Shown here piece by piece: positions 5,361 to 45,408 of a stretch of 46,182 nucleotides of DNA. The notes under the pieces are model-generated. The model was not told the DNA's origin. It made no database searches and was given only the letters and a program-made list of their open reading frames with translations. Location of the stretch: the NCBI GenBank assembly GCA_963579925.1, contig CAUZJA010000001.1, forward strand, positions 1-46,182, written 5' to 3'. A program made the position numbers and the translations under genes. The number at the start of each line of letters is the position of its first letter. Position 1 is the first letter of the stretch. The stretch comes from Dehalococcoidia bacterium. GTDB taxonomy: Bacteria > Chloroflexota > Dehalococcoidia > Lucifugimonadales > Lucifugimonadaceae.

Positions 5361-5423
5361 TGGCGTTCTCCTTAGAAGCTTTCGGGTGGGGTTGTTCCAG
5401 GTGGCAATCCTGGCTGGTTATTT

Positions 5424-5452
5424 GTAGGGGCAGGTATGAAACCTGCCCCTAC
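5424..5452. repeat. REP-like hairpin GTAGGGGCAGGT-ATGAA-ACCTGCCCCTAC
   Basis: 12-bp perfect stem inside the 199-bp gap between the small- and large-subunit genes. It shares the GGGGCA...TGCCCC stem with hairpins at 9412-9432, 9489-9508, 15254-15275 and 15441-15462. Confidence 0.7.
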
Positions 5453-5559
5453 GGGTATCACTTGTATGTCAACAGCCTCCAACTTGCCGGACTATTTGTC
5501 CAGCGAGATGGAGGTCTACCGGCTGTCTTGATCAGCATCTTCGACAGAAAGCGGAACGC

Positions 5560-6030
5560 TTACGCGCCCACCTGCGTCTTCTGAACAGCCTTGATGATCT
5601 TGTCGTATCCGGTGCACCGGCAGAGGTTGCCAGCGAGCCAGTGACGAACTCGGTGCTCGTCAGCGTCAGGCTCTTTTTCCAGGAGTGACTTTGCAGAAAC
5701 CAAGAATCCTGGTGTGCAAATTCCGCACTGGAGTGCTGCCTCTTCAAGGAACGCCTGCTGCAGCGGGTGAAGCCCATCTGCTGTGGCCATTCCTTCAATG
5801 GTGTTGAGCGTGGCGCCGTTGATCTCTGCGCCAAGAACGCAGCATGAGTCAACAATTCGACCGTTCAGTTCCACGGTGCATGCACCGCAGTTGCCGTCGT
5901 TGCAGCCTTCTTTGGTGCCGGTCAGGTTCAATACATCCCTGAGCGTCTCAAGAAGACTCATGTACGGCTCAACCAGGAACTCATGCTCCTGGCCGTTGAT
6001 GGTTGTCTTTATGTGGACCTTGTCGACCAA
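5560..6030 (-). CDS. (2Fe-2S)-binding small subunit (CoxS-like)
   Basis: 156 aa with CNDGNCGACTV, CGICTPGF and CRCTGY cysteine motifs. Confidence 0.95.
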   Translation of the reverse strand: MVDKVHIKTTINGQEHEFLVEPYMSLLETLRDVLNLTGTKEGCNDGNCGACTVELNGRIVDSCCVLGAEINGATLNTIEGMATADGLHPLQQAFLEEAALQCGICTPGFLVSAKSLLEKEPDADEHRVRHWLAGNLCRCTGYDKIIKAVQKTQVGA

Positions 6031-7125: not shown

Positions 7126-7971
7126 TCAGCGCCCGTCCGCGCCAACCCACTCAATGTTGGGTTGGCCTTCGAACCGTCTTGCCATCACGTCTATCGCTTC
7201 GGGATTTGAGTCCACCAGAACAAACTCACGCTCCAACTCAAGACACACTTCACCCGTAGTGCCGCTGCCGGCGAAGAAATCGAGCACCAGGTCGCCGGGA
7301 TTTGAGGACGCTGAGACTATGCGTCGCATGATTCCAAGGGGTTTCTGGGTTGGGTACCCGGTTCGTTCTTTGCCCGAGGTCGGCACGATGGTGTGCCACC
7401 ATGTGTCGGTGGGTAACTTGCCGCGTTTCGCCTTTTCCGGCGTCACCAAACCCGGTGCCATGTACGGAATCCGCTCCACATCATCCGAATTAAAGACGTG
7501 CTTACCAGACGTTTTGGCGTACACAAGGATGTTGTCGTGCTTGGGAGGCCAGCGATCTTTTGGCCGTCCTCCATAGTCGTAGGCCCAGATGATTTCGTTC
7601 AGGAAGTTCTCACGGCCAAAGATGCAGTCCATCATCACTCGACAGTAGTGAACCTCGCGATAATCAAGGTGGACGTAGATCGTCCCACTTGGCTTCAGGA
7701 GCCTGCGCGCTTCAACAAGTCGAGGCTCAAGAAAGCCAAGGTAATCGTCGAAAACATCTTCGTACTGCCGCTCGCCGAGGGATTCAGAGTCGTAGCGTTC
7801 GCCTTTGAAGCCTTTGCGCGTGCCTTTTTCCGACCTAACGGTCTTCATACGGTTCAAAGACTGCGTCTTGCCCGTATTAAAGGGAGGGTCGATATAAATG
7901 AGCTGAACTGACTCATCCTTCATTGCTTGAAGGATGGGTAAGTTGTCACCGATGTGGATTGTGCTTGTCAT
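7126..7971 (-). CDS. Site-specific DNA methyltransferase, beta class (N6-adenine or N4-cytosine)
   Basis: Motif IV IYIDPPFNTG lies N-terminal to motif I VLDFFAGSGTTG, which is the beta-class order. No endonuclease-like ORF is adjacent. Confidence 0.9.
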   Translation of the reverse strand: MTSTIHIGDNLPILQAMKDESVQLIYIDPPFNTGKTQSLNRMKTVRSEKGTRKGFKGERYDSESLGERQYEDVFDDYLGFLEPRLVEARRLLKPSGTIYVHLDYREVHYCRVMMDCIFGRENFLNEIIWAYDYGGRPKDRWPPKHDNILVYAKTSGKHVFNSDDVERIPYMAPGLVTPEKAKRGKLPTDTWWHTIVPTSGKERTGYPTQKPLGIMRRIVSASSNPGDLVLDFFAGSGTTGEVCLELEREFVLVDSNPEAIDVMARRFEGQPNIEWVGADGR

Positions 7972-15463: not shown

Positions 15464-16516
15464 TACCTGTAGTTTCCACGAACGTTGTTTACAGCCTTGA
15501 TACAGGCGGGAGCATGCCCAGACTGGTGTGTGGCCTGCGGTGATTGTAGTTTTTTACGAACCTCGGCAGCTCGTTCAAGCGCTCCTGATTTGACATGTAG
15601 ATTCGCTTGTACGCCCACTCCCGTATCAGCATCTTGATGAACGCCTCCGCCTTCCCATTTGTCTGAGGCCTGTACGGCCTGGTTCGCCTCAATCCGATGT
15701 TCAGTTCCGCTGCCTGTTCTCTAAATACCCGTGATGTGTAGTTGGAACCGTTATCGGTGAGGATTCGCTCGATTTTTACCCCCACGCGCTCGTATGCCTT
15801 TATCGCACGCAACAAGAAATCCACCGTTGTGATTCCCTTCTCATCACCCAGTGCCTCAACGTAGGCGTAACGAGAGTGATCATCGATTGCCACATGGATA
15901 AAGTCCTGCCCTCTCAACCCACCACGAATACGGTGGGAGGTATTGGTCACGTGCCACTCGGGATCCTTGCGCCTTCCTCCACCATTCGGTATCCGTCGTA
16001 GCTTCTTCACATCGAGGTGCAGCAGTTCACCAGGACGCTCTCGTTCATACCGGATAACTTCCCGCGTAGTCCGGTCCATCCATGTGAGGCGTGAGATGCC
16101 GTTGCGTCTGAGTACGCCGTAGACGGTCGATCGAGCCATGCCCAGTTCAGCTGCGATGCGGTGTGGGCCGGTTCCATCTCGGCGCCTGAGACTACAGATC
16201 GTCTTCACTTTCCTCTTGGAGAGAGCGTGGGGCGTGCGCCTGGGCCGTGATGAGCGATCTTGAAGACCGTCGATGCCTTCTTCTCGGTATCGCTTTACCC
16301 ACTTGCAGACGGTGGGCCTGGAGACGCCTTGTGCCTCGGCTGCTTGAGCCTGAGTCATCCTGGATTCGAGGCGTTGAATCAACCGCAAGCGGCCTATAAC
16401 GGTGAGTGGGGCGTTAGCATGGACCATGGGGGAAGTTCCTTTCTGATTTGTTTGTACCTACCAGAATGAACTTCCCCTATTTCATGTAAACAACGTTGGT
16501 GGGAACTACAGGTAGG
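15461..16516 (-). mobile_element. Complete IS481-family insertion sequence
   Basis: Terminal inverted repeats cctgtagtttccacgaacgttgtttaca (15466-15493) and tgtaaacaacgttggtgggaactacagg (16485-16512), about 25/28 matching. They flank a single DDE transposase ORF. No target-site duplication could be identified. Confidence 0.9.
15489..16427 (-). CDS. IS481-family transposase (HTH + rve integrase core)
   Basis: 312 aa. N-terminal HTH (GVSRPTVCKWVKRYREEG), integrase-core region ...HVAIDDHSRYAYV...TDNGSNYTS..., and C-terminal YNHRRPHTSLG. Confidence 0.95.
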   Translation of the reverse strand: MVHANAPLTVIGRLRLIQRLESRMTQAQAAEAQGVSRPTVCKWVKRYREEGIDGLQDRSSRPRRTPHALSKRKVKTICSLRRRDGTGPHRIAAELGMARSTVYGVLRRNGISRLTWMDRTTREVIRYERERPGELLHLDVKKLRRIPNGGGRRKDPEWHVTNTSHRIRGGLRGQDFIHVAIDDHSRYAYVEALGDEKGITTVDFLLRAIKAYERVGVKIERILTDNGSNYTSRVFREQAAELNIGLRRTRPYRPQTNGKAEAFIKMLIREWAYKRIYMSNQERLNELPRFVKNYNHRRPHTSLGMLPPVSRL

Positions 16517-27444: not shown

Positions 27445-28668
27445 CTAGATCTCTTCCGGGCACCAGGGCAGACGTTCCGTTCGGAACATTGAGTCCGCCA
27501 ATGCGAGTTGCTCGTTGGAAGACGATTCTGCGCGAAGAGCCGCCACCAGCGTGCTGAACGAAACGCCGCCCATGTAGGCCGCGCTCAGGGCATCTGCTCT
27601 CAAAGTGGCATCGGGATTCGCATCGACTTCAGTAACGGTGGCTACACCTGCCTCAACAGACAGCCGGTAAGTGCCATCGTTCCATGGGCAGAACTCATCA
27701 TTTACCCTGATCGTGAGTTCCCCATCCGACGAATATGTTCTTTCCCCAAGCGCTGCCTTCACATCAACCAGTCGAAGCCACATGCCGTCCAATTCAACGC
27801 GGCGAAGCCTTCGGGAATCGTTGACGCGCCACTGCAGCGGGTCATCTGGCGTCATGTTCCAGTATGAGATCGTCTGCACAAGGTCGATGCCAAACAAGTA
27901 GCGCCATAGGCTTTTGTGAGCATCGTCGGTGGTCCAGATTAGCTCTTCAACTGCAAGTTCCATCTCATCTGGCTCGATGCGATAGACCACGTAGCCTTCG
28001 GGTACACCGTTGTTGAAGTAGACCACCCACATGCGATCAGATCCGCCATGTCGTTCATGCTCCGGGGAGGCGATGGTGAAGTCCCACCAGTTCTCCCGCC
28101 GCTCCAACATCCCAGCCCACGATTTACGCGCCGTATCCCACACGTGCTGCATGTGCGGACGTGCTTCTTTTCCGGACATCATCCTGACGGTTCCAAGCGC
28201 GTCGGTCTCCCCGCGACGGAACTTAGCGTCAACCTTCTCAATCGACGTATTCTGCGTTGTCGTCGCCACTCCAAAGCCAAAACGACCGTAGATCAGCGCT
28301 TCGGACGCCCAGAGCATCGAGAACGTCTCACCACGCTCTCTGGACTGTGCAAGCTGATTGGTCATCATTGACGTGAGAATGCCGCGCCTGCGGTGTGAAG
28401 GCTTCACGGTGACATACGCGATGCCGCTGCATGTGCCATTTCCACCGCCGGGAAGCGAGATGGGCAACGTTTGGGCGCCAATGGTGCCAACGATCTGTGC
28501 ACCATCGAACACGGCGAACGACCTGTCGCACTCCATGATGCGGGTTTCCGCCTCAATGCGACTATCCGGCGTGGAGTTTCCAAACCCAAGGTCTATTGCC
28601 TGAACAAAGGTAGGAATTTCAGGCTCTGTGATCGCTCTGAGCGTCAGGCCGTCTGGGAGAGTTGCCAT
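27445..28668 (-). CDS. Eis-like GNAT N-acetyltransferase (double GNAT + SCP2-like C-terminus), paralogue 1
   Basis: 407 aa with VTVKPSHRRRGILTSMM (AcCoA loop) and ASEALIYGRFGFGVA. The start abuts the stop of paralogue 2 (0-nt gap). Confidence 0.8.
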   Translation of the reverse strand: MATLPDGLTLRAITEPEIPTFVQAIDLGFGNSTPDSRIEAETRIMECDRSFAVFDGAQIVGTIGAQTLPISLPGGGNGTCSGIAYVTVKPSHRRRGILTSMMTNQLAQSRERGETFSMLWASEALIYGRFGFGVATTTQNTSIEKVDAKFRRGETDALGTVRMMSGKEARPHMQHVWDTARKSWAGMLERRENWWDFTIASPEHERHGGSDRMWVVYFNNGVPEGYVVYRIEPDEMELAVEELIWTTDDAHKSLWRYLFGIDLVQTISYWNMTPDDPLQWRVNDSRRLRRVELDGMWLRLVDVKAALGERTYSSDGELTIRVNDEFCPWNDGTYRLSVEAGVATVTEVDANPDATLRADALSAAYMGGVSFSTLVAALRAESSSNEQLALADSMFRTERLPWCPEEI

Positions 28669-29889
28669 TTAGAAGTCCACCACATTCCACGGAGCCTTTT
28701 GCGTCACGAACATGGCATCAGCCTTGCTGAGCGAGCCGACAGCGTTCTCATCAATCAGTCCTGAGCGACCAAGAACGCTCGGCCGGGTTCCGCCAAACGT
28801 AATTGAGCCAAGAATCGCCACGTTCATCGTGAGTTCAGGTGACTTATCAGTAGGTACGCATGTAGCACCATCCCCGGAACCGGAGAGCAAGTATGTCCCT
28901 GCCGCATAGCCGCCTGACTCATCAATCACCTTGATCGACAGGTCTCCAGTTGCGGAATACGCTCTCGATTCGAGCACCGTTGGAACATCAAGAATTCTTG
29001 ACCAGATGCAGTCCTGCGGAATGCGTTCAAGCGCTCGAGTGTCTTGGAGCATCCACGGCAGAGCATCATCCACTGGTCGATCGCCAACTTGTATCTCACC
29101 GACAAGGTCAATTCCGAAGCAGTAGTTCCAGAGGGCAAGTTCAGCGTCTCGGTCAACGCCCACCAGTTCAATAATCCTCATGTTGTCGCGTCCATCGCCC
29201 GTCCGGCGATAGTTCACGTAACCCTCAGGTGAGTCGTTCACATAGTAAATCCCGGTGTGGAGCTCACTGTCGTCATTTCGGTCCCACTCAGGATCGATGC
29301 CGAGCCATTTCCACTCATTGGAACTCCGAATGATCCAGCCAGGACGAGTTGAGGCGACCTTTTCAAACACCTCTCGGGCGTCGGATATTCCGTCCTTGGC
29401 AGACTTATACCGCATCTCGCCGGCCGGTTTTGACGTGATGGCGAGCGCCGTCCGGTTACGAGAAATCTTGTAGCGCTCCCTGAACAGCGCTACGCCGTAG
29501 CCGAACCGGCCGTAGATAGCTGGCTCGGAGGCATAGAGCGATGCCATCGCATGTCCGCGCTCAACTGCCTCCGCCATCGCTGCGGGCATCATCTTTGACA
29601 AAATGCCGCGCCGACGATGGGTTGGGGACACAGTCACCATTGTGATCCCGGCGGTTGAAATTCTGGCTTTTGAATTGACGGTCTCGTAGTCAATGTACGC
29701 CAACGATCCGACGATCTGATCGCCATCGAATGCAGCGAATGGGTAAGTCGCTTCCACGATGTTAGTGAAGTGCGCTAGTTGCTCATCCAGAAACGTGCCT
29801 GCTCCACCAAAACCAATACTGATTGCCCTGCTGAATGCCGGCAACTGGTCTGGCGATGGACGTCTGATTTCGATCTTTTGTTTGTTCAT
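28669..29889 (-). CDS. Eis-like GNAT N-acetyltransferase, paralogue 2
   Basis: 406 aa from ATG 29889 with VTVSPTHRRRGILSKMM and ASEPAIYGRFGYGVA. Ends ...WNVVDF. 2-nt gap to paralogue 3. Confidence 0.8.
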   Translation of the reverse strand: MNKQKIEIRRPSPDQLPAFSRAISIGFGGAGTFLDEQLAHFTNIVEATYPFAAFDGDQIVGSLAYIDYETVNSKARISTAGITMVTVSPTHRRRGILSKMMPAAMAEAVERGHAMASLYASEPAIYGRFGYGVALFRERYKISRNRTALAITSKPAGEMRYKSAKDGISDAREVFEKVASTRPGWIIRSSNEWKWLGIDPEWDRNDDSELHTGIYYVNDSPEGYVNYRRTGDGRDNMRIIELVGVDRDAELALWNYCFGIDLVGEIQVGDRPVDDALPWMLQDTRALERIPQDCIWSRILDVPTVLESRAYSATGDLSIKVIDESGGYAAGTYLLSGSGDGATCVPTDKSPELTMNVAILGSITFGGTRPSVLGRSGLIDENAVGSLSKADAMFVTQKAPWNVVDF

Positions 29890-29891
29890 AA

Positions 29892-31115
29892 TTAAAAGTA
29901 GATGTGAGGCCATGGGGCCACGTTTGATTCAAATAGTCGTTGCAAGCGGGCGACGCCATCGCCAGCATGATCCTCAATCTGACCAGCGGCAAACATGGAA
30001 TAAGCACTCACGCCGCCAAGATAGAGCGAGCCAAGGTCTTCAACCCTCAGAGTTACCTCTGGAGCGCCCGGAGTTGGGCTGCAGACCGCTCCTTCATCGC
30101 CAGAGTCCAGCAGATGAGTGCCGTTGTTCCACGGGCACGATTCATCAATCACGCCGATCGCGATAGTATCCTCAACGCCATAGAGCGCTGCGCTCAGCGC
30201 CTCATCGACGTCAACCAATCTCAATGAGATGCCATCCGAAATCGTGCGGGTGACTGCCCGTCGATCTTTCAGCCACCAATGGAGTGGTTCATCCGGCGGA
30301 CGCCTTACCTCTAGTTTTCTAGTGAGATCAATATCCAGAAAGTACCGCCACAACCGCGCAGAGGCGCGGATAGTGGCCGCGACCATATCGTTGATCTTGA
30401 CGGTTCCGCTTGGGTTTCCGCTGGCCCAATCGTTTTCAACTTGATATGACGCGAAGCCCTCGCAACGGCCATCAAAGTAACAGCCCACCTGCAGTGTCTT
30501 TAGTTGCTGGCCTGGTGGGGATATTTTTCCTCTCAGTTCTCTGATCCAGAACGGGTCGGAGCGCGTGATAATTCCTGGCGTCAGATGCATGGCTTGAGTG
30601 TGAACTGGCGTGAACTCTTTGATGGCATCTTCCCAATCGACGAACCTCATATCCCCTTCCGCGCCAACGCCATCATGGAAATCTGAACGAGTGGTGTCGA
30701 TCTCCAGATCCTCGTTCCACGTCGCAACACCCCAGCCGAATCGACCGTAGATTGGCGCCTCCATGGCGAATAGCGCTGCGAGCGACTCACCCCGCTCCCG
30801 GTAGTCCGCAAGCTGGCGCGTAACCATGCCACGCATGATTCCCTGTCGCCGATGCGTTGGGCGCACCGCAACCCAGCTCAGACCGCCGCAAGGCAGGATA
30901 GCGCCGCCGGGCACGGACATGGAGTGCGAATACGACATCGATTGCCCAACCAGTTGATCGCCATCAAACGCGACAACAGAGCGATCAAACTCCCAGGCGT
31001 TCTTGCCCCAGTACTCCGCCCATTCGGGGATCGGCAGAGTTCCCTCCGCCACGCGGTTGAGTTCGTCAGCCAGCGGATGCTCTTCTGGCTTCAGTTTTCG
31101 ATATTCAAGACTCAT
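29892..31115 (-). CDS. Eis-like GNAT N-acetyltransferase, paralogue 3
   Basis: 407 aa with VAVRPTHRRQGIMRGMV and AMEAPIYGRFGWGVA. Ends ...WPHIYF. Confidence 0.8.
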   Translation of the reverse strand: MSLEYRKLKPEEHPLADELNRVAEGTLPIPEWAEYWGKNAWEFDRSVVAFDGDQLVGQSMSYSHSMSVPGGAILPCGGLSWVAVRPTHRRQGIMRGMVTRQLADYRERGESLAALFAMEAPIYGRFGWGVATWNEDLEIDTTRSDFHDGVGAEGDMRFVDWEDAIKEFTPVHTQAMHLTPGIITRSDPFWIRELRGKISPPGQQLKTLQVGCYFDGRCEGFASYQVENDWASGNPSGTVKINDMVAATIRASARLWRYFLDIDLTRKLEVRRPPDEPLHWWLKDRRAVTRTISDGISLRLVDVDEALSAALYGVEDTIAIGVIDESCPWNNGTHLLDSGDEGAVCSPTPGAPEVTLRVEDLGSLYLGGVSAYSMFAAGQIEDHAGDGVARLQRLFESNVAPWPHIYF

Positions 31116-31131
31116 TCAGCTCTCATTAACC

Positions 31132-32355
31132 TCAAATTTGGGGCTCAATAGCCGGACACCATGGCATGGACGACCAGCCAAACATGCTATCTGCGGTGGC
31201 TACCGCTGAGGATGTGTTCCCAGCGATGCGACCCGATGCAGCAAGGACAGATGGTTTCACACCGCCAAGGTAAATTGCACCAAGGTCTTCCACCGTCATG
31301 GTCAGGTCTGGAAGTTCCGTGCTGGAAGTGCAGGTCGCTCCAAGTGGGCCGCCTTCCAACCGGAATGTACCGGCACCCCAGCCACCCCACTCGTCAATCA
31401 CCTCAATAGTTAGCCCGCCATCATGTGCATAGCGTCTCGCCTCCAGCGCGGCGGGGACATCGAGAATGCGATTCCATACGCTATCGATGGACAGTCGTTC
31501 GAGACGTCTCGGGTTGCGAAGTAGCCACGGTAATGGGTCATCAATCGGACGGTTGCCCGCGGTGATGGATTCGATCACATCGATGCCGAACAGATATTCC
31601 CACAACGCCCGATGCGCCGCTGGCGTTGTAGTGACCATCTCCTCCACGACCAGCGTCTTCTTCGGAATCCAATTCTGCCAGTTGCCTGAGCTGTTGTAGA
31701 TCACATAGCCCAGCGTTTCGCCAGCTTCCTGGTAGGCGGCAATCAACATCTTCTTGATCTCGACAGGCCAGAAGCGGAGATCCCAGTAGGTCTGATCTCT
31801 CTCATAGGTTCCAAGGCGAGTGCGAGGCGCCAACGCATATGCACTGGGAATGACTTGTTTTGCGGTTTCAAGATCAACCAGCACTACCTCACCGGGGATG
31901 TCATATTCATCACGGAAAACAGCGTGCGGCTGCTGAATCTTGAAGCGCTCAAAGTGCGAAGCAATGCCGTAGCCGAACCGCCCATAGATAGAACTCTCAG
32001 AAGCGTGCAGCGTGGCGGTTGGTTCGCCGATCTCTTTGACCTGATCCATGTGCTGCCGCATCATCTCGGTCAGGATGCCACGTCGTCGGTGAGTGGGGCG
32101 CGTCGTTACGAATGAGAGGCCCGCTGAGTTGAGTTTGCCGCCGGGCACGGTCATTGGTGTTGGGAAGCTGCACAGTGTGCCAACGATCTGAGATCCATCA
32201 AACGCTGCCACAGATCGCTCCGGCTCGAACACGGGTCCGAACCGATCAAACGCATCCTCCTGACCGGCGCCCGTGTCTGTATACGCCGTAATTTCGGCGC
32301 GCAGAAAGTCTGGGAACTCTTCCTGTGTGACGGCGCGGTATGTAACTGGTCTCAT
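31132..32355 (-). CDS. Eis-like GNAT N-acetyltransferase, paralogue 4
   Basis: 407 aa with VTTRPTHRRRGILTEMM and ASESSIYGRFGYGIA. 16-nt gap to paralogue 3. Confidence 0.8.
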   Translation of the reverse strand: MRPVTYRAVTQEEFPDFLRAEITAYTDTGAGQEDAFDRFGPVFEPERSVAAFDGSQIVGTLCSFPTPMTVPGGKLNSAGLSFVTTRPTHRRRGILTEMMRQHMDQVKEIGEPTATLHASESSIYGRFGYGIASHFERFKIQQPHAVFRDEYDIPGEVVLVDLETAKQVIPSAYALAPRTRLGTYERDQTYWDLRFWPVEIKKMLIAAYQEAGETLGYVIYNSSGNWQNWIPKKTLVVEEMVTTTPAAHRALWEYLFGIDVIESITAGNRPIDDPLPWLLRNPRRLERLSIDSVWNRILDVPAALEARRYAHDGGLTIEVIDEWGGWGAGTFRLEGGPLGATCTSSTELPDLTMTVEDLGAIYLGGVKPSVLAASGRIAGNTSSAVATADSMFGWSSMPWCPAIEPQI

Positions 32356-36973: not shown

Positions 36974-38475
36974 CTATTTCGAATCCGCGGCGCTTTCACT
37001 CTCGCCATCACCGGGCCGAGTCATGATTGCTGCGATGGTGGCCAGTACCCCCACTGCCACGACAACCAGGTAAGCGATTCTCCAGCCATCGATAAACGCA
37101 TCTGACGCGCCAGGAGTTGATTTGATTTCACTGAGAGGGATATCGAAACCCGCGTTCACCATCACACCCACCACCACGGCGGCGACAACGGCCTGACCAA
37201 CAACGCTGCCTACGTTCCGAACCAGGTTCACGAATGCGCTGACCACCCCGTAAGCCGAACGTGGTACCGACCCCATGGTTGCGCTGTTGTTGGGCACGTT
37301 CCAGATGCCTATTCCCATACCATTGGCAAACAACACCAGCATGATCACGCATACAGGAGTGGTGCGGGTGAAAAACGAGAAACCAATGGACGTGAACAGC
37401 AGCAGCACAAAGCCAAGCACTGTCAGCCACCGGTGTCCGAACTTATCGGAAAGCCTCCCGCTCAGCTGCGCTGCAATTCCCAATCCCAACGCACCAACAA
37501 ACAGGATGCCGCCTGTTTTGCCTTCACTCATTTCCCTGAAACTCAGCAGATAGATCGGCATCATGAAGAACGTGGCCGTCACCGTCATGAATCCCAGATA
37601 GCGCGCTGCTATGGCGTACTTGAACACCGTGATCTTGAATAGCCGCAGATCAAGCATTGGAGCGGGAGTACGCAACTCCCACTTCACAAACCAGACAAAT
37701 ATCCCCACCGTCAGCACCGCTCCACCAATGATCAGTGGCGATAGCCAGCCAACTGCAAGCGGATTGTTGATGGTCAAGACCAGCACGATCATGCCTGTGG
37801 CCGAAAGGACCGCACCAAGCCAGTCGTAGCGCGGTCGATCTGCACCGGTTTGACCGAGCCGATGCGCTTATCGTCGAGAATGAAGTATCCCCATATGAAT
37901 GCGATGGTAATGGGAATCGCCATAAAGACGAAAAGCGACCGCCACGAAAATATCTGCAGCAACAATCCAGCAGCTATAGGCCCCGCCGCGCTGCCTACCG
38001 CAACCGCAGTGGTCTGACCGCCGAGACCCTTTCCCCGTTCACTGGTCGGAAATACCGAGATGATGATCGCCGTTCCCACCGCCTGGCCCATGGAGTTCCC
38101 AACCGCCATCACAATTCGAGCCACGATGAGAATCGGCAGGGTAGGGGAGAGCGCCGCAAAGATCGCACCGCCACCAAACAGAGCCATCCCCACCAGGTGG
38201 AACTTCTTCCGACCAACAATGTCTGCCACACGCCCCAGCGGCAGCATCAACGCGGCAATGGTGAGCGATTGCGCGATCACAACCCACGATACCGCCCGCA
38301 GCGTCACGCCAAAGTCATCCGCAATCGAAGATAGCGCCAGGAAAACGATGGAGAAGCTCATCACCATCGTGACCAGAGCTATTCCAGCAGCGGAAAACGC
38401 CATCCACTTGTAGTTATCGTCAGGGTTGGCGTCAGGATCCCAGACAACTTCAGTAGACGCTGGCTTATCGCTCAT
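36974..38475 (-). pseudogene. MFS transporter, DHA2 family, paralogue 3, split by one frameshift
   Basis: The N-terminal ORF (37789-38475) ends ...FILDDKRIGSVKPVQIDRATTGLV.... Shifting one nt near 37838-37850 gives RPRYDWLGAVLSATGMIVLVLTINNP, which continues into ORF 36974-37792 and is collinear with paralogues 1 and 2. Confidence 0.75.
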
Positions 38476-38657: not shown

Positions 38658-41600
38658 CTACCCCCAGTCTTTTGTTTTTAGCGTTGGCGTGCCTGACTCA
38701 ATCGGCTTCAGATCCTTCACCACCACGTTGATCGTGCCTTCACGATGCGAAACCGTACCGTGCGCCAGCAGCACCGGCGCACGGGCAATGCGCTTCAGCC
38801 GCTGCCACGTCGTAGGCCAGATCACCAGCGGCGAATGGCCAAACTCATCCTCCAGCGTCATGAACACAGCCTTCGCAAGCGGCATCTGTCGACGAATCAC
38901 AATGCCACCAACCCACACATCCGTGCCGTCCGGCAGGTCGCGGACCTTGTCTGATCGCACCATGTAGGGCGGCAGGCGAGGGCGGAGCTTCGCCATCAGA
39001 TGCCCCTTCGGATAGACGCCCATCGTGCGGTACTCGCCAACCATCACCTCAAACGGCGACTGCCCCGGCAGATCGACCATGTCCTGATCCACCGGCATAT
39101 CGAATCCAAGCTGACTGCCAATGGGCCGATACCGCAGGCCAATCTCCCAGCGCGTCGAGCGGCGGTCCTCGTCCAGCGAATCGAAGAACCCGGCGTCTGC
39201 GAGATTATCGAGCGCCTCATGCTGGATACCGGCGCGCATCATGAAGTCTGAGATCGACTCAAACTCGCCGAATCGCCTTCGCGTAGCCAGAATCGCCTGC
39301 GACGTAGCCTTCTGGACTCGCCGCACATGCCGAACGCCAAGGCGCAGGTTGCCGCTCTCCACGACCGCCTTCTCATCACTCCGATTCACGTCCGGGTTTA
39401 GCACTTCTACACCGTGCCGTCGTGCATCCTCTTTAAGCGTCTCAAGGTTGTAGAAGCCCATTGGCTGCTGGTTGAAGAGGCCAACGAAGAACTCCAACGG
39501 GTAGTAGTACTTGAGCCACGCCGCCTGGAACGCCGTCACGCCAAAGGCAAATGCGTGCGCCTCCGGGAACTGGAACTCACCATGGAACTTCAGGAATATC
39601 TTCTCGGCCGCCTCAATCGGAACGCCCTTTGCCATCGCCCCGGAGATGAACTTTTCATGCCACATCGGCACAAGCTGATCAGCGTTCCGACGACTGAACG
39701 CTCGACGCATGCGGTCGGCCTCCGCCGCGCTCATACCCGCAACGTACTTGCCAAGCTCCATGAGCTGGTCCTGGTAGAGCACAACACCCAGCGTGCGCTC
39801 CAGCGCCTCACGCTCAAGTGGATGGTCGTACTGCCAGTCTGTCTCCTGCCCCGTATGACGCCGGATGAGGGTTGAGACGCCGTTGTTCACGCCAACACCA
39901 GGGCGAACCGCGCCAACCTCCCACGCCATCTCCTTGAGGTCTTTAGGGCGAATGCGAGGAGTCGTCTGCATCTGCGCAGCAGACTCCACTTGGAAGACGC
40001 CAATCGTGTCAGCCTCGTGAATCGACTTATAGACCTTCTGGTCGGCGAAATCGATGAGCGAAAGGTCCACGCGCTCCTCACGATGCACCTCAATCAGCTT
40101 GATCGCCTCGTTCATCTGCGACAGCGCACCAAGTGCCAGGAAGTCGATCTTCACGAAGCCGGCATCGTCGATGCTGTCCTTATCCCACTGGCAGATGAAC
40201 CGACCCTCCATAGCGCTGCGTTGCAACGGCACTGTCTCGGCCAGCGACCGTGCGCTCAGCACCATGCCACCAGGATGCTGCGCCAGATACTTCGGGAAGC
40301 CCTTGAGTTGTTGCGAAAGCTCCACGAGATCACGCCACTGCTGCGAATTTGCGCGATCCCTGAACTCCGGAAGCTCTTGAAGCTCCTGGCCGAGCTGACT
40401 CACCCGCGCGTGGCCGTCGATGCGCTTTGTGAGCTTGTCCAGGTCCTCCCCCGGCATGCCCAGCGCCTTGCCCAGATCACGAATGCAGCCCTTGATGCGG
40501 TACGTGGAGATCATGCCCGTCAGCACCGCCCGATCGTAGCCCCAGCGCTCATGCACCCGCAGGATCAACTGCTCTCGTATATCCCGTGGGAAGTCGAGAT
40601 CGATATCAGGCACAGAGCCAAGCTCTTCTGAGAGAAAACGATCCAGTTTGAGATCAAACTCCAGCGGATCGATGTGCGATAGACCAATCAGATACCCAAC
40701 CAGCATCGATACCGACGAGCCACGCCCTCGACCCGGCGGATTCACTTCCAGCGGCAATCCCGGCTCCACCAAACCAAGCTCCTCCTGCACCTCGCGGGCA
40801 ATCTTGATGATGTCGTAGTACTGGAGCATGAAGCCGCAGAGGTCGTGCATGCTCAGCAGCCGAATCTCCTCATCCAACCGCTCTTTGACCGCTCGAGTCA
40901 CCTCGCCATACCGCCTGATCGCCGCCTCCTCGCACAGCTGACGCAGCCACGTTGCCGACGTGTGGCCGTCAGGCGTGTCATAGTCAGGGAACTCGTAAAT
41001 CGCATCCGTCGTGAGTTCCAGATCGCACCGCTCAGCAATGCGCACCGTGTTTGAGATAGCTTCCGGGTACTCAGTGAACAGCGCCGCCATCTCGTCCGGG
41101 TACTTCAGATAGAACTGATCATTAGGCCGCCGCTCCCGATGCGACTCCTCCATCGACTTGTTGTGCTGTATCGCAACCAGCGCATCGTTCAACCGACTCC
41201 GAGACACGTCGTGATAGTGAGCGTTATTCGTCGCCACCACACCCACGCCAACCTCCGCTGCGATGTTGGCCATGAGGCGATTACGGAGCGTGTCATCCTT
41301 CACCAGATTCTGCTGCAACTCCAGGAAGAAATTCTCAGACCCAAACCAGTCCCGATACTGCCGAGCCAACTGAGTGGCCCGTTCGATCTTGCCCTGTAGC
41401 ACCAGTGTGGATATCTCACCGTCACGGCAGCCCGACAGGCAGATAACACCCTCAGCGTGCTCAGCCAGCAGGGCAAGGTCCAACTCCGGGACTTTCCGGT
41501 CCTCAGCATCAATGTGGGCATGTGTAGTGAGGCGAGAGATGTTCTTGTACCCCTCAGCAGTCTCCGCCAGCAGCGTCAGGTGATGGCCACCCATCAGCGT

Positions 41601-41969
41601 TACCTCAACACCGGTAATCGCCTTGATCCCAACATCACGAGCCGCCTGCGCGAACTCCATCGCACCGCACAGATTGTCGTGATCAGTAATCGCCAGCGCC
41701 CGATACCCCAACTCCTGCGCCCGCTTCAGCAACTCCTGAGTATCCGAAGCCCCCTCCTGGAACGAGTAGTTGGAGTGGCAGTGAAGCTCCGCATAGGACG
41801 TATTCGGAGCGGCGTAAGCAGCGCTCTCTTCCTCCGCCCGACTACTGCGCTCAATCGACCCCGGATACATATTCCGATCGAGCATAGGAGAGCCCAGAAC
41901 TTCACGCGCGTTACCAAGAAGGTCTGAGAACCCGCCGCTGCTTCGATGTTGTTTTTTGCGTATTAGCAT
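38658..41969 (-). CDS. dnaE2: Error-prone DNA polymerase III alpha-like subunit DnaE2 (ImuC)
   Basis: 1103 aa. PHP domain YAELHCHSNYSFQEGAS...AITDHDNLCG, Pol III alpha core, OB-fold tail, no tau/beta C-terminal extension. The true start may be internal (M29/M34), because YAELHC normally lies near the N-terminus. Confidence 0.9.
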   Translation of the reverse strand: MLIRKKQHRSSGGFSDLLGNAREVLGSPMLDRNMYPGSIERSSRAEEESAAYAAPNTSYAELHCHSNYSFQEGASDTQELLKRAQELGYRALAITDHDNLCGAMEFAQAARDVGIKAITGVEVTLMGGHHLTLLAETAEGYKNISRLTTHAHIDAEDRKVPELDLALLAEHAEGVICLSGCRDGEISTLVLQGKIERATQLARQYRDWFGSENFFLELQQNLVKDDTLRNRLMANIAAEVGVGVVATNNAHYHDVSRSRLNDALVAIQHNKSMEESHRERRPNDQFYLKYPDEMAALFTEYPEAISNTVRIAERCDLELTTDAIYEFPDYDTPDGHTSATWLRQLCEEAAIRRYGEVTRAVKERLDEEIRLLSMHDLCGFMLQYYDIIKIAREVQEELGLVEPGLPLEVNPPGRGRGSSVSMLVGYLIGLSHIDPLEFDLKLDRFLSEELGSVPDIDLDFPRDIREQLILRVHERWGYDRAVLTGMISTYRIKGCIRDLGKALGMPGEDLDKLTKRIDGHARVSQLGQELQELPEFRDRANSQQWRDLVELSQQLKGFPKYLAQHPGGMVLSARSLAETVPLQRSAMEGRFICQWDKDSIDDAGFVKIDFLALGALSQMNEAIKLIEVHREERVDLSLIDFADQKVYKSIHEADTIGVFQVESAAQMQTTPRIRPKDLKEMAWEVGAVRPGVGVNNGVSTLIRRHTGQETDWQYDHPLEREALERTLGVVLYQDQLMELGKYVAGMSAAEADRMRRAFSRRNADQLVPMWHEKFISGAMAKGVPIEAAEKIFLKFHGEFQFPEAHAFAFGVTAFQAAWLKYYYPLEFFVGLFNQQPMGFYNLETLKEDARRHGVEVLNPDVNRSDEKAVVESGNLRLGVRHVRRVQKATSQAILATRRRFGEFESISDFMMRAGIQHEALDNLADAGFFDSLDEDRRSTRWEIGLRYRPIGSQLGFDMPVDQDMVDLPGQSPFEVMVGEYRTMGVYPKGHLMAKLRPRLPPYMVRSDKVRDLPDGTDVWVGGIVIRRQMPLAKAVFMTLEDEFGHSPLVIWPTTWQRLKRIARAPVLLAHGTVSHREGTINVVVKDLKPIESGTPTLKTKDWG

Positions 41970-42022
41970 TTGTATGTTTGGGTGATTGGTTTCGAAGTGG
42001 TTTAATCTCCATCAAGACGAAG

Positions 42023-42093
42023 CGAAACGACTGTCACCCTGAGGAGGGCGGCTCCGCGACCGACGTGAGGGCTTCTGCCAGCTTCGAACGCCG
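42023..42093 (-). repeat. GIY-YIG-associated repeat, direct-repeat copy A (reverse orientation relative to 1-53)
   Basis: cgaaacgactgtcaccctgaggagggcggctccgcgaccgacgtgagggcttctgccagcttcgaacgccg is about 85% identical to 42487-42557. It encodes the C-terminal tail ...LAEALTSVAEPPSSG of the GIY-YIG ORF. Confidence 0.85.
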
Positions 42094-42432
42094 ATCAAGG
42101 TCCTCAACTAGCGCAGTTTTCGTCTTCAAACTCATATCAGTACGAAATGCCGGGAACAAATCCTCCCAACTAGGGTTCACTGATTCGACCAGCGCTAACT
42201 TCCTTGATCGGCGCCACTTCTTGATCTGACGCTCGCGCGTTACCGCCGCATAGGCATCCTCAATCGCCTCGAAGTACACCAGCCGCTTGATATTGCGGTC
42301 GAGTGTGTAGCCAGGGATCAATCCCTCGCGATGTTTGATCATCCGGCCATACAGATCCGATGTCATACCGACATATGTCGAACCTGAGCGGTTAGCCAGG
42401 ATGTAAACGCAGAATGTCTTGTTCTGTTTCAT
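42034..42432 (-). CDS. GIY-YIG nuclease superfamily protein (small stand-alone UPF0213/COG2827 type)
   Basis: 132 aa from ATG 42432: MKQNKTFCVYILANRSGSTYVGMTSDLYGRMIKHREG...ERQIKKWRRSRK. The upstream part of the ORF-track entry is repeat-encoded. Confidence 0.85.
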   Translation of the reverse strand: MKQNKTFCVYILANRSGSTYVGMTSDLYGRMIKHREGLIPGYTLDRNIKRLVYFEAIEDAYAAVTRERQIKKWRRSRKLALVESVNPSWEDLFPAFRTDMSLKTKTALVEDLDRRSKLAEALTSVAEPPSSG

Positions 42433-42486
42433 GTAGCGGAGTCCTTTTCGCATTGAATCCGCGATCCATGGCCAGGGAGCTTCGCA

Positions 42487-42557
42487 TCGAAACGACTGGC
42501 ACCCTGAGAGGGGCGGCTCCGCACCCGACGTGAGGGAGTTTGCCAGCTTCGAACGCC
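42487..42557 (-). repeat. GIY-YIG-associated repeat, direct-repeat copy B
   Basis: See 42023-42093. Together the two copies bracket the GIY-YIG coding sequence. Confidence 0.85.
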
Positions 42558-42700
42558 GCAATGGTCATTTAGCTTCAAACACTCCATCCTCAAACTCCTC
42601 CTTGCCGAATCGGTACCCATCCAGCTGTATCGTCGATGCATAGCGACGAGGTAGAACCGGACCGGTTGGCTTTCATGTGACAGGTTCCTAATCATGACTG

Positions 42701-42746
42701 GCAGATGCCCTCACGTCGGGTGCGGAGCCGCCTCCTCAGGGTGACT
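42701..42746 (+). repeat. GIY-YIG-associated repeat, inverted copy
   Basis: ggcagatgccctcacgtcgggtgcggagccgcctcctcagggtgac has the same orientation as copies 1-53 and 124-180, and is inverted relative to 42487-42557. Confidence 0.8.
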
Positions 42747-42809
42747 GATGGGATGTGGCTGTTTTCATCTGTTGCTCGTTCCATCCCTCTCATCCCTGCC
42801 ACCACTCCC

Positions 42810-42837
42810 TTGACGGATAGAACATATGTTCTATTAT
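42810..42837 (+). promoter_or_regulatory. Putative sigma-70-type promoter TTGACG-N16-TATTAT overlapped by a LexA box
   Basis: TTGACG at 42810-42815 and TATTAT at 42832-37. The spacer and -10 contain the palindrome listed below. Located upstream of DUF72-imuB. Confidence 0.55.
42818..42833. promoter_or_regulatory. LexA (SOS) box, perfect 16-bp palindrome TAGAACATATGTTCTA
   Basis: Matches the Gram-positive/Chloroflexi-type core GAAC-N4-GTTC (Cheo box CGAACRNRYGTTYC). It sits in the divergent region of an imuB/dnaE2 locus, a classical SOS regulon member. Confidence 0.75.
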
Positions 42838-42887
42838 GAACCATAAGAGATGGTTACGCGCAGTCCACAACGACAGGACTGAACAGC

Positions 42888-43856
42888 GTGCGCCAAAGAG
42901 ACGCGAAGGCAAAGAGCGCGATGTCACAGGCAGTATTAGAAACAACGAGAGCCAGGATGGATGTCCCTGCGCGATCAACTACTGCTGCCTCACCTGTCAG
43001 CATCGGCACACCCTCGGCTGTCAGTGTTGGGACGCCCTCGGCTGTCAACGTTGGGACACAGGGCTGGGCGGTGCCGGGCTGGCAGGGACTTCTTTATCCG
43101 GCTGGCTTGAAGGCCAACAAACGACTCAGCCTCTACGCACGCGTGTTCAACAGCGTGGAGGTCAACAGCACCTTCTACGCACCCCCCGCACCAGAGACGG
43201 TCAAACGATGGCTTGCCGATACGCCGCCTGAGTTCCGATTCGCTCTGAAAATGCCACGCTGGATCACCCACGAACGCCGACTCCGTGTCGGACCGCGCGA
43301 TCTCAAAGAGTTCTTGCGAACTGCTGAGATGTTCGAAGACAAGCTCGGGCCAATCCTGATCCAACTCCCACCCAGCTTCGGCGCTCCGGGACTATCCGTA
43401 CTCAGCGAGTTTCTGCGCGATCTGCCGGTCGATTCGATGCAGTTCTGCGTTGAGGTGCGACGGCCATCGCTCCGATCAGCCGGAGTGCGAAACCTGCTCC
43501 ATCGACGCGGCGTGGGGCTGGTCACAACCAATCTGCTCAACGAGCCCGGAGACATAGAAACGATCAACGGCATCGCATATCTAAGACTGCTTGGCGGACG
43601 GCGAATACCCGGTATCACCACCCCAGACCCATCACGAATGACGCTGGATGAGTTTGCTGTCGAAACAGGCCGATGGGCTTCCGCACTGGCTCTCGCGCAA
43701 CGAGAAAGTGGCGCTGAGGCATACGCATTCGTCTCAAACGACTACTACGGCCCTGGCATCCTGCCCGCCGCACAGTTGATGAAGCACATGGGCATACCAA
43801 CGCGCCTGCGCTCCGGCTCATTCGATACCTCGCCCGTACAGGGAGCGCTACTGTGA
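42888..43856 (+). CDS. DUF72 (YecE/UPF0759) family protein
   Basis: VGTQGW...LYARVFNSVEVNSTFYAPP...FRFALKMPRWITH...ILIQLPPSF match DUF72 hallmarks. Start uncertain (GTG 42888, ATG 42921 or ATG 42957). The stop overlaps the imuB GTG (GTGA). Confidence 0.8.
   Translation: MRQRDAKAKSAMSQAVLETTRARMDVPARSTTAASPVSIGTPSAVSVGTPSAVNVGTQGWAVPGWQGLLYPAGLKANKRLSLYARVFNSVEVNSTFYAPPAPETVKRWLADTPPEFRFALKMPRWITHERRLRVGPRDLKEFLRTAEMFEDKLGPILIQLPPSFGAPGLSVLSEFLRDLPVDSMQFCVEVRRPSLRSAGVRNLLHRRGVGLVTTNLLNEPGDIETINGIAYLRLLGGRRIPGITTPDPSRMTLDEFAVETGRWASALALAQRESGAEAYAFVSNDYYGPGILPAAQLMKHMGIPTRLRSGSFDTSPVQGALL
42995..43066 (+). repeat. In-frame 24-bp tandem triplication at the DUF72 5' end
   Basis: tgtcagcatcggcacaccctcggc / tgtcagtgttgggacgccctcggc / tgtcaacgttgggacacagggctg encodes VSIGTPSA-VSVGTPSA-VNVGTQGW. 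Confidence 0.85.
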
Positions 43857-45067
43857 CCAACACAGGACGAGGCGGCAGGGTAGGGCCGGTGGCGTGCATG
43901 CTAATCCCGCACTTCCCGTGGCAAACAGAAGTGCGCCGCAACCCCGATCTGAAAGACCAGTCAGCGCTGATCATCAACATTGCTGCTAACGGCTCGGGCC
44001 GGACGATCCTCGACTGGTCGCCTGATATCGAGAGCGTGCTGCCGGGAATGCCGCTCCAAGAAGCACTTTCTCGCAACAAAGGCGCGCTGATCATCGAGCC
44101 GGATATGTCCCACTATGAGGTCGCATTCGGACGACTGCTCAAGGTGCTGGAAGAGCGCTGCCCGGATGTGGAAGACGACGGCCTGGGTAGGGCGTACGTT
44201 GGCATCTGGGGACTGGAAAGCCTCTACGGTGATGACGCCCGTGTGGTGCAGATCCTGGCCAACGCCATTCGGCAGTATGACCTGCGGATAGGTGTTGGCG
44301 ACAACAAGTGGGTCTCATACGTGGCCGCACTGCAAAGCGGACCCAACAGCGGCCGAAAGGTCACCGGCGACCCCGGCAGCTTCCTGAGCAACCTGGCGGT
44401 CGACATACTGCCGGTCGACTATCGAATAGTGCAGCGGCTGCATGGATTCGGGTTGAAAAAGCTTGGCGAGGTGTCCGGGCTTCCGGAAGGTTCTTTCCAG
44501 GCGCAGTTTGGCGCTGAGGGGAAACTGGTCTGGGAACTGGCAAACGGCTTCGACTCACGTCCGCTGGTGTCGCGCCGATCAGAGGAGATCGTCTCTGAGT
44601 ACCTGATGTTCCCGGACGCAACGGTCAGCATGCCAACCATCGTTACCGGCATCGAGAGCCTGCTCTCGCGATCGTACTCGCGCCCGCAACTGGCTCAGCG
44701 ATATGCGCGTCAGGCCGTACTGGAAGCAAGCGTGTTCCGTCGGCCTCCATGGACAATGCGCGTCGCCTTCAAAGAGCCAGCAGGGGACCGATCGCACGCG
44801 CTTTTCGGCATAAAAACTCGACTGGACACGCTGGAAATTCCCGGCCCACTGGAAGACATGCGCCTCACACTCTCCGGCCTCACAGGCGAAGCCGGGCAGC
44901 AGGGATCAATGTGGACAGAAGTTCGGCGCAGTCAGCAGATGCAGGAGACCATCAGCCAACTACAGGCCCGGCTGGGCGTAGCACCACCAATCTACAAAGT
45001 CAGAGAGCTGGAACCATGGTCACGAATTCCGGAGCGGAGACACGCTCTGGTGCAATTAAGCTCCTGA
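43853..45067 (+). CDS. imuB: ImuB-like Y-family polymerase homologue (catalytically inactive type), N-terminal ~400 aa
   Basis: N-terminus VACMLIPHFPWQTEVRRNPDL lacks the D-x-D acidic motif of active Y-family polymerases. Palm/fingers/little-finger-like layout. Neighbours dnaE2. Confidence 0.8.
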   Translation: MTNTGRGGRVGPVACMLIPHFPWQTEVRRNPDLKDQSALIINIAANGSGRTILDWSPDIESVLPGMPLQEALSRNKGALIIEPDMSHYEVAFGRLLKVLEERCPDVEDDGLGRAYVGIWGLESLYGDDARVVQILANAIRQYDLRIGVGDNKWVSYVAALQSGPNSGRKVTGDPGSFLSNLAVDILPVDYRIVQRLHGFGLKKLGEVSGLPEGSFQAQFGAEGKLVWELANGFDSRPLVSRRSEEIVSEYLMFPDATVSMPTIVTGIESLLSRSYSRPQLAQRYARQAVLEASVFRRPPWTMRVAFKEPAGDRSHALFGIKTRLDTLEIPGPLEDMRLTLSGLTGEAGQQGSMWTEVRRSQQMQETISQLQARLGVAPPIYKVRELEPWSRIPERRHALVQLSS

Positions 45068-45408
45068 ACCAACCGGAGCCGGTAGACGTGCTCACAGATG
45101 ACACAGGCAACCCGCTATCCGTCTCAGTCCGCATCACCCTGCCCACCAGCAGCCCGACGGGTAAGCCTGATCGCAAACCCGCCCCCAAACAGTCACCCGG
45201 CCCCAGACGCAGGCGATCCCCCCGCGTATCGAAGATGCACAGGGTGCAGTCCGTAGACGATCGCTGGAAGGTGAACGACGAGTGGTGGCGCGGCCCAGAT
45301 CAGGAGATAGAGCGAATGTACTACTCGCTGCTATTGGAAAACGGCCATCGGGTAGTCGTCTATCGCGATATGAAGGCAAACAGCTGGTACCGCCAGTTTT
45401 CGCGCTGA
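45016..45408 (+). CDS. ImuB C-terminal module in a different frame (separate ORF or frameshifted continuation)
   Basis: ...LLNQPEPVDVLTDDTGNPLSV...RVQSVDDRWKVNDEWWRGPDQEIERMYYSLLLENGHRVVVYRDMKANSWYRQ resembles, from memory, the conserved ImuB C-terminus (ERI..EWW...RDYF...G...W). It overlaps the end of 43853-45067 by 52 nt in the -1 frame. Confidence 0.6.
   Translation: MVTNSGAETRSGAIKLLNQPEPVDVLTDDTGNPLSVSVRITLPTSSPTGKPDRKPAPKQSPGPRRRRSPRVSKMHRVQSVDDRWKVNDEWWRGPDQEIERMYYSLLLENGHRVVVYRDMKANSWYRQFSR

Follow-up and report, generated by a model that had tools for sequence, protein, structure and literature searches.

In the stretch analysed here, the 46,182 nucleotides (nt) of contig CAUZJA010000001.1 from a marine Chloroflexi genome of the SAR202 type (the whole 46 kb stretch is called the window below), we studied the locus at positions 38658-45408, which carries a translesion polymerase cassette. 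The locus is a member of the mutasome family that lacks ImuA and consists of iPolY, ImuB-C and DnaE2, a type already published in 2013 and 2019. We consider it probable that this cassette is a LexA-repressed mutasome with an extra first gene of the DUF72 (YecE) family, whose product would be a clamp-tethered, SOS-induced enzyme acting on DNA. The operon and its control region contain the following features.

42810-42837, plus strand: sigma-70-like promoter, with the -35 hexamer TTGACG at 42810-42815, a 16-nt spacer and the -10 hexamer TATTAT at 42832-42837.
42820-42831: LexA-type operator GAACATATGTTC, a perfect GAAC-N4-GTTC palindrome that fills the 16-nt promoter spacer exactly.
42817-42834: extended palindrome of the operator, ATAGAACATATGTTCTAT.
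42888-43856, plus strand: DUF72 (YecE-family) gene, the first gene of the operon (PF01904, E 1.4e-49, 169.5 bits against a cut-off of 25.3), with an alternative ATG start at 42921.
43839-43853, plus strand: QGALL-COOH, a weak variant of the beta-clamp-binding motif, at the C-terminus of DUF72 in a disordered tail.
43853-45067, plus strand: iPolY, an inactive Y-family polymerase equivalent to the N-terminal part of ImuB (404 amino acids, PF00817).
44900-44914, plus strand: QGSMW, the putative internal clamp-binding motif of iPolY (residues 350-354).
44918-45007, plus strand: region homologous to the RecA-NT-like motif of the Dehalogenimonas iPolY (residues 356-385).
45016-45408, plus strand: ImuB-C, a standalone protein of 130 amino acids.

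To place the locus among its relatives, one genome per GTDB species was scanned with the window polymerase. This gave 548 relatives, of which the best 80, all Chloroflexota belonging to Dehalococcoidia or SAR202, were analysed, and the neighbouring genes in these 80 loci were assigned by local hidden Markov model searches. The iPolY tree separated them into group A, with 48 loci including the relatives of the window, and group B, with 32 loci whose iPolY is about 44-48% identical to that of the window. The results showed that iPolY is followed by ImuB-C in 78 of the 80 loci, and then by DnaE2 wherever the contig reaches far enough.

The promoter hexamers agree with the consensus at 10 of 12 positions, and the palindrome at 42820-42831 overlaps the promoter, as in the sequence definition of a LexA regulon. 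We take GAAC-N4-GTTC to be the LexA operator motif of Gram-positive bacteria and Dehalococcoides. The motif occurs once in the 46 kb window against a chance expectation of 0.95, so the lone copy is at chance level, and related loci typically have 1-3 copies in about 20 kb. Unlike its count, the position and conservation of the box are beyond chance: 52 non-redundant related loci have the arrangement TTGACn-N4-GAAC-N4-GTTC-TAT(T/A)AT in front of the first cassette gene, and all loci with DUF72 as well as the majority of group A have the box upstream of that gene. The box that the sequence-only reading had placed in front of DUF72 was confirmed as a LexA-type sequence. Because the box precedes DUF72 wherever DUF72 is present, the regulated transcript has DUF72 as its first gene, and one promoter with a LexA-type box in its spacer appears to drive DUF72, then iPolY, then ImuB-C. 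Neither the window nor the related loci contain a lexA gene.

Two further observations concern the control regions of related cassettes. In group B (L058-L090), 29 of the 32 cassettes have no GAAC-N4-GTTC within 500 bp upstream, the exceptions being L064, L066 and L075, and most of these loci lack the motif in the whole 20 kb. Since the gene order is the same but the box is nearly always missing, group B cassettes must be regulated differently. In one clade, the cassette promoter is directly preceded, on the operon strand, by a DUF2461 (PF09365) gene (L016 7454-8140, L018 1803-2489, L022 1439-2125, L030 9055-9741 and L033 9046-9732); four of these open reading frames (ORFs) were assigned by Pfam, while the one in L033 was included solely from its position and length.

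In 15 of the 80 species-level genomes, DUF72 takes the first position directly upstream of iPolY, preceded by the same promoter-operator; these genomes fall into three clades of group A with nested losses at L022, L030, L033 and L054. In the window, the DUF72 stop codon TGA (43854-43856) overlaps the GTG start codon of iPolY (43853-43855), giving the 4-nt GTGA overlap at 43853-43856 that had been read from the sequence before. This close spacing was found in all 19 DUF72-bearing loci examined, where the stop codon of DUF72 either overlaps the start codon of iPolY or lies right next to it, in the form of GTGA or ATGA, of TAATG, or of a 2-nt gap. The linkage holds even where iPolY has diverged to 44% identity, and on metagenomic contigs every DUF72 homologue of at least 43% identity whose context was read is followed by iPolY, with the L007 contig holding a full same-strand operon DUF72-iPolY-ImuB-C-DnaE2. 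The cassette-linked DUF72 proteins are monophyletic, stand apart from generic DUF72, and branch in a way that mirrors the iPolY tree. Because they form one such clade, the DUF72 of the cassette is old and vertically co-inherited with iPolY. In addition, L064 contains an intact gene of another DUF72 lineage (4129-5010, plus strand), located between ImuB-C and DnaE2 of a group B cassette, which ends in VQATLGLS and is followed by a 238-amino-acid ORF without family assignment; phylogenetically it represents a separate recruitment event, the second one of DUF72 into this cassette type. The suspicion that the adjacency of DUF72 and imuB might be a chance juxtaposition unique to this genome is therefore refuted, as the adjacency is conserved, coupled and placed behind a LexA-type operator in three related clades, and the same features argue for the proposed role of DUF72 in the damage response.

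The link between DUF72 and the cassette is specific, because all four generic DUF72 genes examined (about 40% identity) lie among unrelated genes and not near repair genes. As separate, weak hints of a repair context, a generic DUF72 gene was found within about 1.5 kb of a gene for an SOS-response-associated peptidase (SRAP) in L102 (Deinococcus taeanensis plasmid, 2986-5590), and another within about 1.5 kb of nth in L106 (Sphingomonas plasmid, 2971-5203).

The same data bear on the reading that DUF72 is a passenger, that is, a metabolic or housekeeping enzyme fixed behind an SOS promoter in one lineage without any role in lesion bypass. A passenger would fit the structural neighbours of DUF72, which are sugar isomerases and epimerases, the unrelated metabolic genes around generic DUF72 genes, and the many cassettes that do without it. 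However, the linkage has been kept over the divergence described above with a conserved start-stop overlap, a second DUF72 lineage has been recruited into the same cassette, DUF72 is independently enriched beside the unrelated PolB2 mutasome (PMC11791011), and a clamp-binding tail would make no sense for a metabolic enzyme. We regard this reading as rather improbable.

With regard to the polymerase subunits, the sequence-only reading had taken imuB to be one ORF extending to 45408. The analysis corrected this, as the Y-family ORF stops at 45067 and 45016-45408 is a separate ORF in another frame, whose ATG lies inside the 3′ end of iPolY with a 52-nt overlap. iPolY proteins form a large family in Chloroflexota, about 400-480 amino acids long, and all members end in ...EPWSRIPERRHALVQLS; the stop at 45067 is therefore real. 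When iPolY was aligned with canonical ImuB from Rhizobium and Sphingobium plasmids by hhalign, the similarity covered the whole Y-family part up to a common ...PER motif (probability 98%, E 3e-14). The catalytic residues D8, D10, D103 and E104 of Escherichia coli DinB correspond to M, I, G and R throughout the aligned iPolY family, which indicates that the catalytic carboxylates have been lost and that iPolY is presumably a catalytically dead polymerase. Its internal motif follows the family pattern Qx[SA][ML][WF] with Q350 invariant, and we take QGSMW to be comparable to the mycobacterial ImuB motif QLPLWG. The ImuB-C ORF is conserved in relatives and annotated as a gene of 130-131 amino acids in the close relatives P0255 and P0258. 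Its match to canonical ImuB covers the very C-terminal end of that protein (residues 435-483 of 503) and is of moderate significance (hhalign E 3e-5, probability 73%), both sharing an EWWR...R.Y motif and an LL..PEP lead-in, while a search of the PDB with ImuB-C gave only chance-level matches.

A frameshifted imuB pseudogene or a programmed frameshift was also considered and rejected, as the stop after ...ALVQLS is kept in 25 aligned family members and ImuB-C is a separate, often non-overlapping ORF in other clades; no slippery heptamer was seen in the 52-nt overlap on inspection of the sequence. As a side observation, a second copy of ImuB-C is located between the first ImuB-C and DnaE2 in L039 (12165-12335), L045 (12213-12398) and L047 (12291-12458).

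The sequence-only reading had also noted that no imuA-like ORF exists in the window and had suggested that DUF72 might substitute for ImuA. The first statement was confirmed: Pfam detected no RecA- or ImuA-like ORF in the window, phmmer searches that used two canonical ImuA proteins and the E. coli RecA as queries found no match in the window or in 90 related loci, and none of the 80 related cassettes has an imuA at a distance of up to 10 kb. Since an ImuA-less variant has already been described, the missing imuA needs no substitute. The system of iPolY, standalone ImuB-C and DnaE2 without ImuA was first noted by Aravind in 2013 (PMC3765255) and was described by Timinskas and Venclovas in 2019 (PMC6511836), for example in Kyrpidia tusciae and Dehalogenimonas lykanthroporepellens; the supplement of the latter paper lists the Dehalogenimonas operon as 'LexA->iPolY->ImuB-C->DnaE2'. 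These authors detected no imuA in genomes of this kind and suggested the RecA-NT-like motif of iPolY as the binding site of RecA; for Dehalogenimonas, this motif is listed as EVRSSDKLESDIQQLELRMGTPPLFRVE followed by the tail EVEPWSRIPERRYTLIPLGR (PMC6511836 supplement). The counterpart in the window iPolY, identified by comparison with the Dehalogenimonas motif and not with RecA, is EVRRSQQMQETISQLQARLGVAPPIYKVRE followed by LEPWSRIPERRHALVQLSS. The two proteins share a C-terminal ...EPWSRIPERR tail as well as this region.

The window agrees with this variant in the dead Y-family polymerase without catalytic carboxylates, the standalone ImuB-C adjoining the polymerase gene, DnaE2, the lack of imuA within the 46 kb and the association with LexA. 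It differs in the extra first gene DUF72, which is translationally coupled to iPolY, in the inversion of dnaE2 together with a GIY-YIG gene, and in the absence of a lexA gene from the operon. DUF72 is mentioned neither in PMC3765255 nor in PMC6511836 and the 2019 supplements. With the canonical imuA-imuB-dnaE2 cassettes of Rhizobium pPR12A203 and Sphingobium pYGP1 the window shares a dead Y-family scaffold with an adjacent DnaE2, the ImuB-C motif EWWR...RDY and a presumably damage-inducible promoter, whereas it has no RecA-fold ImuA, its ImuB is split into two proteins instead of a single fused one, and dnaE2 lies outside the operon.

Could DUF72 nevertheless replace ImuA as a structural subunit that binds iPolY or ImuB-C and is needed for the recruitment of DnaE2? 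It holds the first operon position, as imuA does in the canonical cassettes L097 and L099, it is translationally coupled to iPolY, and imuA is absent from the window and the 90 related loci. On the other side, both imuA and an adjacent DUF72 are missing from 64 of the 80 related cassettes, and DUF72 has been lost repeatedly inside DUF72-bearing clades. The ImuA-less variant already has RecA as its proposed partner, and the RecA-NT-like region is retained in the window iPolY. Moreover, as described in the next paragraph, DUF72 has a different fold from RecA and keeps all its invariant residues of catalytic type, as in free-standing DUF72. Because the sister cassettes lack both genes, the ImuA-less architecture is explained, and the fold and pocket are those of an enzyme, we conclude that DUF72 is not an ImuA replacement, which leaves that proposal very unlikely. 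As most sister cassettes do without it, DUF72 is a lineage-specific accessory of the cassette.

The AlphaFold2 model of DUF72, built from 58 sequences, is a triosephosphate isomerase (TIM) barrel with a mean predicted local distance difference test (pLDDT) score of 83 and a barrel core above 90; residues 1-48 and 312-322 are predicted to be disordered, with pLDDT below 50 in the C-terminal tail. Foldseek searches with this model returned the three DUF72 crystal structures 1vpq, 1vpy and 1ztv as top matches (1vpq E 1.6e-14), followed by L-rhamnose isomerase, D-allulose epimerase and F420-dependent oxidoreductases with template modelling scores of about 0.4-0.5, and a profile search of the PDB gave 1vpq with E 6e-41. 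The earlier statement that DUF72 does not have the RecA fold was thereby upheld. The window protein keeps all the invariant polar residues of the family, E91, K121, H128, Q159, E189, R191, Y231 and R233, each located at the C-terminal end of a predicted barrel strand or immediately behind it. Since every family-invariant polar residue is kept, the window DUF72 is predicted to be an active enzyme of the ordinary DUF72 kind and not a degenerate scaffold. Compared with YecE and Tm1631 (1vpq, 1vpy, 1ztv), it has the same PF01904 domain, TIM barrel and invariant residues, and differs in a disordered N-terminal extension of about 50 residues, in ending with QGxLL instead of QMSLF, and in its SOS-operon context. 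Within this extension, a 24-nt tandem repeat of two copies (43011-43057) encodes a duplicated SxGTPSAV segment before the first barrel strand, and its copy number varies among the closest DUF72 homologues P0002 and P0003.

The C-terminal tail of DUF72 carries further evidence on its role. The beta-clamp-binding motif is Q-phi-x-[L/M]-[F/L] according to a 2024 review (PMC11139829). Among the 120 nearest DUF72 homologues, 117 end in Qxx[LM][FL]-COOH, mostly as QMSLF or QLTLF, and E. coli YecE (K-12 yecE, L100 5396-6214) ends in ...PQQSSLF-COOH. Across full-length representatives of the 50%-identity clusters, the motif was found in the last ten residues of 53 of 140 (38%), where a rough estimate of the chance expectation is about 2. 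Such conservation appears far beyond what is usual for a disordered tail, and suggests that much of the DUF72 family carries a canonical beta-clamp-binding tail and comprises putative clamp clients. The tails of the cassette-linked proteins are weaker, being QGxLL in the window clade, AAQGWLL in the second clade and FPGTLF in the third, and the L064 protein has QATLGL, a Pol IV-like hexamer. Neither YecE nor DUF72 appears in the 2024 clamp review (PMC11139829), mentions of yecE in bioRxiv concern only Stx prophage integration sites, and none of the open-access papers containing the whole word 'DUF72' ties it to imuB, dnaE2 or the clamp.

The distribution of this motif also suggests another possibility, namely that DUF72 belongs to the SOS response but works away from the mutasome, with damaged nucleotides or sugars as substrates, or as a general repair enzyme that associates with the clamp and has only the promoter in common with the mutasome. 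The spread of the motif through much of the family, including organisms without these cassettes such as E. coli, and its weakness in precisely the cassette-linked clades speak for this possibility. Against it, the tight coupling to iPolY and the co-divergence with iPolY suggest stoichiometric co-production, which fits a shared pathway without proving it. We consider work away from the mutasome unlikely.

DUF72 has been met beside another translesion polymerase. Timinskas et al. (2025; PMC11791011) found DUF72 to be the eighth most frequent neighbour of PolB2 mutasome operons, with 119 cases, as in the arrangement SRAP-DUF72-iRadA-PPB2-PolB2 in Thermoplasmata. In both settings DUF72 is located immediately upstream of a damage-inducible, multi-subunit translesion polymerase operon, and PolB2 operons have LexA or Orc1 regulators nearby (PMC11791011). 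The two systems are otherwise unrelated, the former consisting of the B-family polymerase PolB2 and a RadA homologue, and that of the window of the C-family polymerase DnaE2 and a dead Y-family scaffold. In that study DUF72 is only an enriched neighbour, and no clamp motif was reported for it (PMC11791011).

Taken at its full length, the mechanism that we favour, a clamp-tethered DUF72 enzyme made together with the mutasome, would run as follows. DNA damage would lead to cleavage of LexA and derepression of the operon. The dead polymerase iPolY would dock on the beta clamp through its internal QxSMW motif and bridge ImuB-C and DnaE2, with RecA in the role of ImuA, and DnaE2 would perform the bypass synthesis. 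DUF72 would act as an enzyme, with its conserved TIM-barrel pocket intact and a clamp-binding motif in its disordered C-terminal tail, and not as a scaffold replacing ImuA. It would be made at the same time and brought to the same clamp-loaded primer-template. Its most likely task there would be to process the damaged DNA or a blocked end, for instance through incision or end-cleaning at the lesion or close to it, either ahead of bypass or following it. We infer both the clamp tethering and the DNA substrate from sequence and context; for the chemistry, incision or end-processing at lesions is the natural guess.

Several observations weigh against this mechanism. Most sister cassettes have no adjacent DUF72, and neither a second LexA box for dnaE2 nor a leftward promoter at the existing box was found. 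In the window tail QGALL, Gly occupies position 2, the aliphatic position, where it lowers affinity in peptide studies (PMC11139829), and one cassette-linked clade has lost the motif Gln (FPGTLF). The idea that the clamp motif is universal in DUF72 had to be rejected, as the motif is absent from Tm1631 and from several plasmid-borne copies in Deinococcus, Bradyrhizobium, Sphingomonas and Paraburkholderia. For the proposed DNA substrate, the literature offers a nuclease connection, as Tm1631 was predicted to be an endonuclease (Konc 2013, PMC3828134) and DUF72 was stated to be close to UVDE (PMC11791011). Neither Foldseek nor hhalign reproduced this similarity, and the reading of DUF72 as a nuclease like UVDE or endonuclease IV is not supported by these tests: both have a TIM barrel of xylose-isomerase-like shape, but UVDE and endonuclease IV are absent from the top 50 Foldseek matches of DUF72, the hhalign probability with E. 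coli Nfo is 0.09%, that is, no profile similarity, and DUF72 has one invariant His in place of the His-rich trinuclear metal site of these enzymes.

To the left of the promoter, the locus contains the following features.

38658-41969, minus strand: dnaE2, encoding the error-prone C-family polymerase as a single ORF of 1103 amino acids with PHP, Pol3-alpha, finger, HHH_6 and OB domains (Pfam).
42034-42561, minus strand: GIY-YIG nuclease-family ORF (PF01541, E 1e-12), in the same direction as dnaE2 and directly upstream of it, with ATG 42432 as the probable start.
42018-42093, 42483-42558 and, inverted, 42698-42745: copies of a 76-nt dispersed repeat found by repeat search.

The best NCBIfam match of dnaE2 is NF004225, 'error-prone DNA polymerase', with 854 bits against 700 bits for DnaE. 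The sequence-only reading had correctly placed dnaE2 on the strand opposite to the imuB operon, which lies on the plus strand, but had not mentioned the GIY-YIG gene and the 76-nt repeats that separate dnaE2 from the LexA box and place about 850 bp between the box and the start of dnaE2. All relatives outside the clade of the window have dnaE2 downstream of ImuB-C on the operon strand. As the divergent orientation is confined in the iPolY tree to the immediate clade of the window (the window, L009, L012 and L013), it is a derived, recent rearrangement of that clade and not a defining feature of the cassette. dnaE2 moved to the opposite strand together with the GIY-YIG gene, and the window keeps the order GIY-YIG, then dnaE2. 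The window GIY-YIG protein is 48% identical to one encoded between ImuB-C and DnaE2 in the distant cassette L080. The two direct copies and the inverted copy of the repeat (families D1 and I1-I3, 35-76 nt) bracket the GIY-YIG gene. Their core, GGCGGCTCCGCnnCCGACGTGAGGG, recurs at 5-29 and 132-156 near the left end of the window and in its two closest relatives, at 2832-2856 of L011 and 8173-8868 of L012. This dispersed repeat may have mediated the inversion that made dnaE2 divergent.

Small nuclease-family ORFs of the DUF559 (Vsr-like) and GIY-YIG types were found to cluster inside mutasome cassettes. Over 1.44 Mb of loci, 30 of the 32 matches lie in cassette zones, which make up 36% of the bases. 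Besides the window, such ORFs are present in L018-L021, L023, L052, L059, L060, L062, L065, L068 and L070, and further in L073, L079, L080, L082, L083, L085, L086 and L088, most of them oriented like the operon and placed either in the interval from ImuB-C to DnaE2 or shortly before iPolY. These ORFs may be selfish genes of the homing type with the cassette as their target, or additional accessories. The notion that DUF72, DUF559 and GIY-YIG genes are mutually exclusive options was ruled out by their co-occurrence in the window, L012 and L018-L021.

Elsewhere, the window holds genes for metabolic enzymes, transporters, a two-component system, four tandem Eis-like acetyltransferases and an IS481-type transposase. 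The following genes were observed among them.

7129-7971, minus strand: DNA methylase (N6_N4_Mtase).
15492-16427, minus strand: IS481-family transposase among metabolic genes, assigned by elimination (HTH_23/28/29, LZ_Tnp_IS481, rve).
27448-32355, minus strand: four tandem Eis-like GNAT acetyltransferase paralogues (Acetyltransf_9, Acetyltransf_17 and SCP2_2).
36977-37792 and 37792-38475, minus strand: two abutting ORFs, each matching half of the MFS_1 model.

The two abutting ORFs (36977-38475) are a split or frameshifted transporter gene beside two intact MFS genes. A gene with the architecture of the Eis-like GNAT proteins of the window follows dnaE2 in L001 and L007, which represents conserved synteny.

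These results establish the ImuA-less cassette with split ImuB as the standard form in SAR202 and Dehalococcoidia, where it repeatedly collects nuclease-family genes. They also bear on DUF72 itself, a very large orphan family with 22,066 cluster representatives at 50% identity (E <= 0.001), for which three crystal structures and an E. coli member are available, yet no experimental function. Three lines point to a clamp-associated role in the damage response, namely the LexA-controlled, coupled position at the head of the operon, the second recruitment, and the clamp tail present in much of the family, and the published enrichment of DUF72 beside PolB2 mutasomes agrees with such a role. Tentatively, and with somewhat more doubt than confidence, we extend this to the family at large: DUF72 proteins including YecE may be sliding-clamp-tethered enzymes that process damaged DNA and have been recruited repeatedly to unrelated error-prone polymerase machines, DnaE2 here and PolB2 in archaea and other bacteria. 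The new elements are the presence of DUF72 at the head of a known cassette type and its clamp motif, and their main value lies in a concrete, testable lead on the function of DUF72/YecE.

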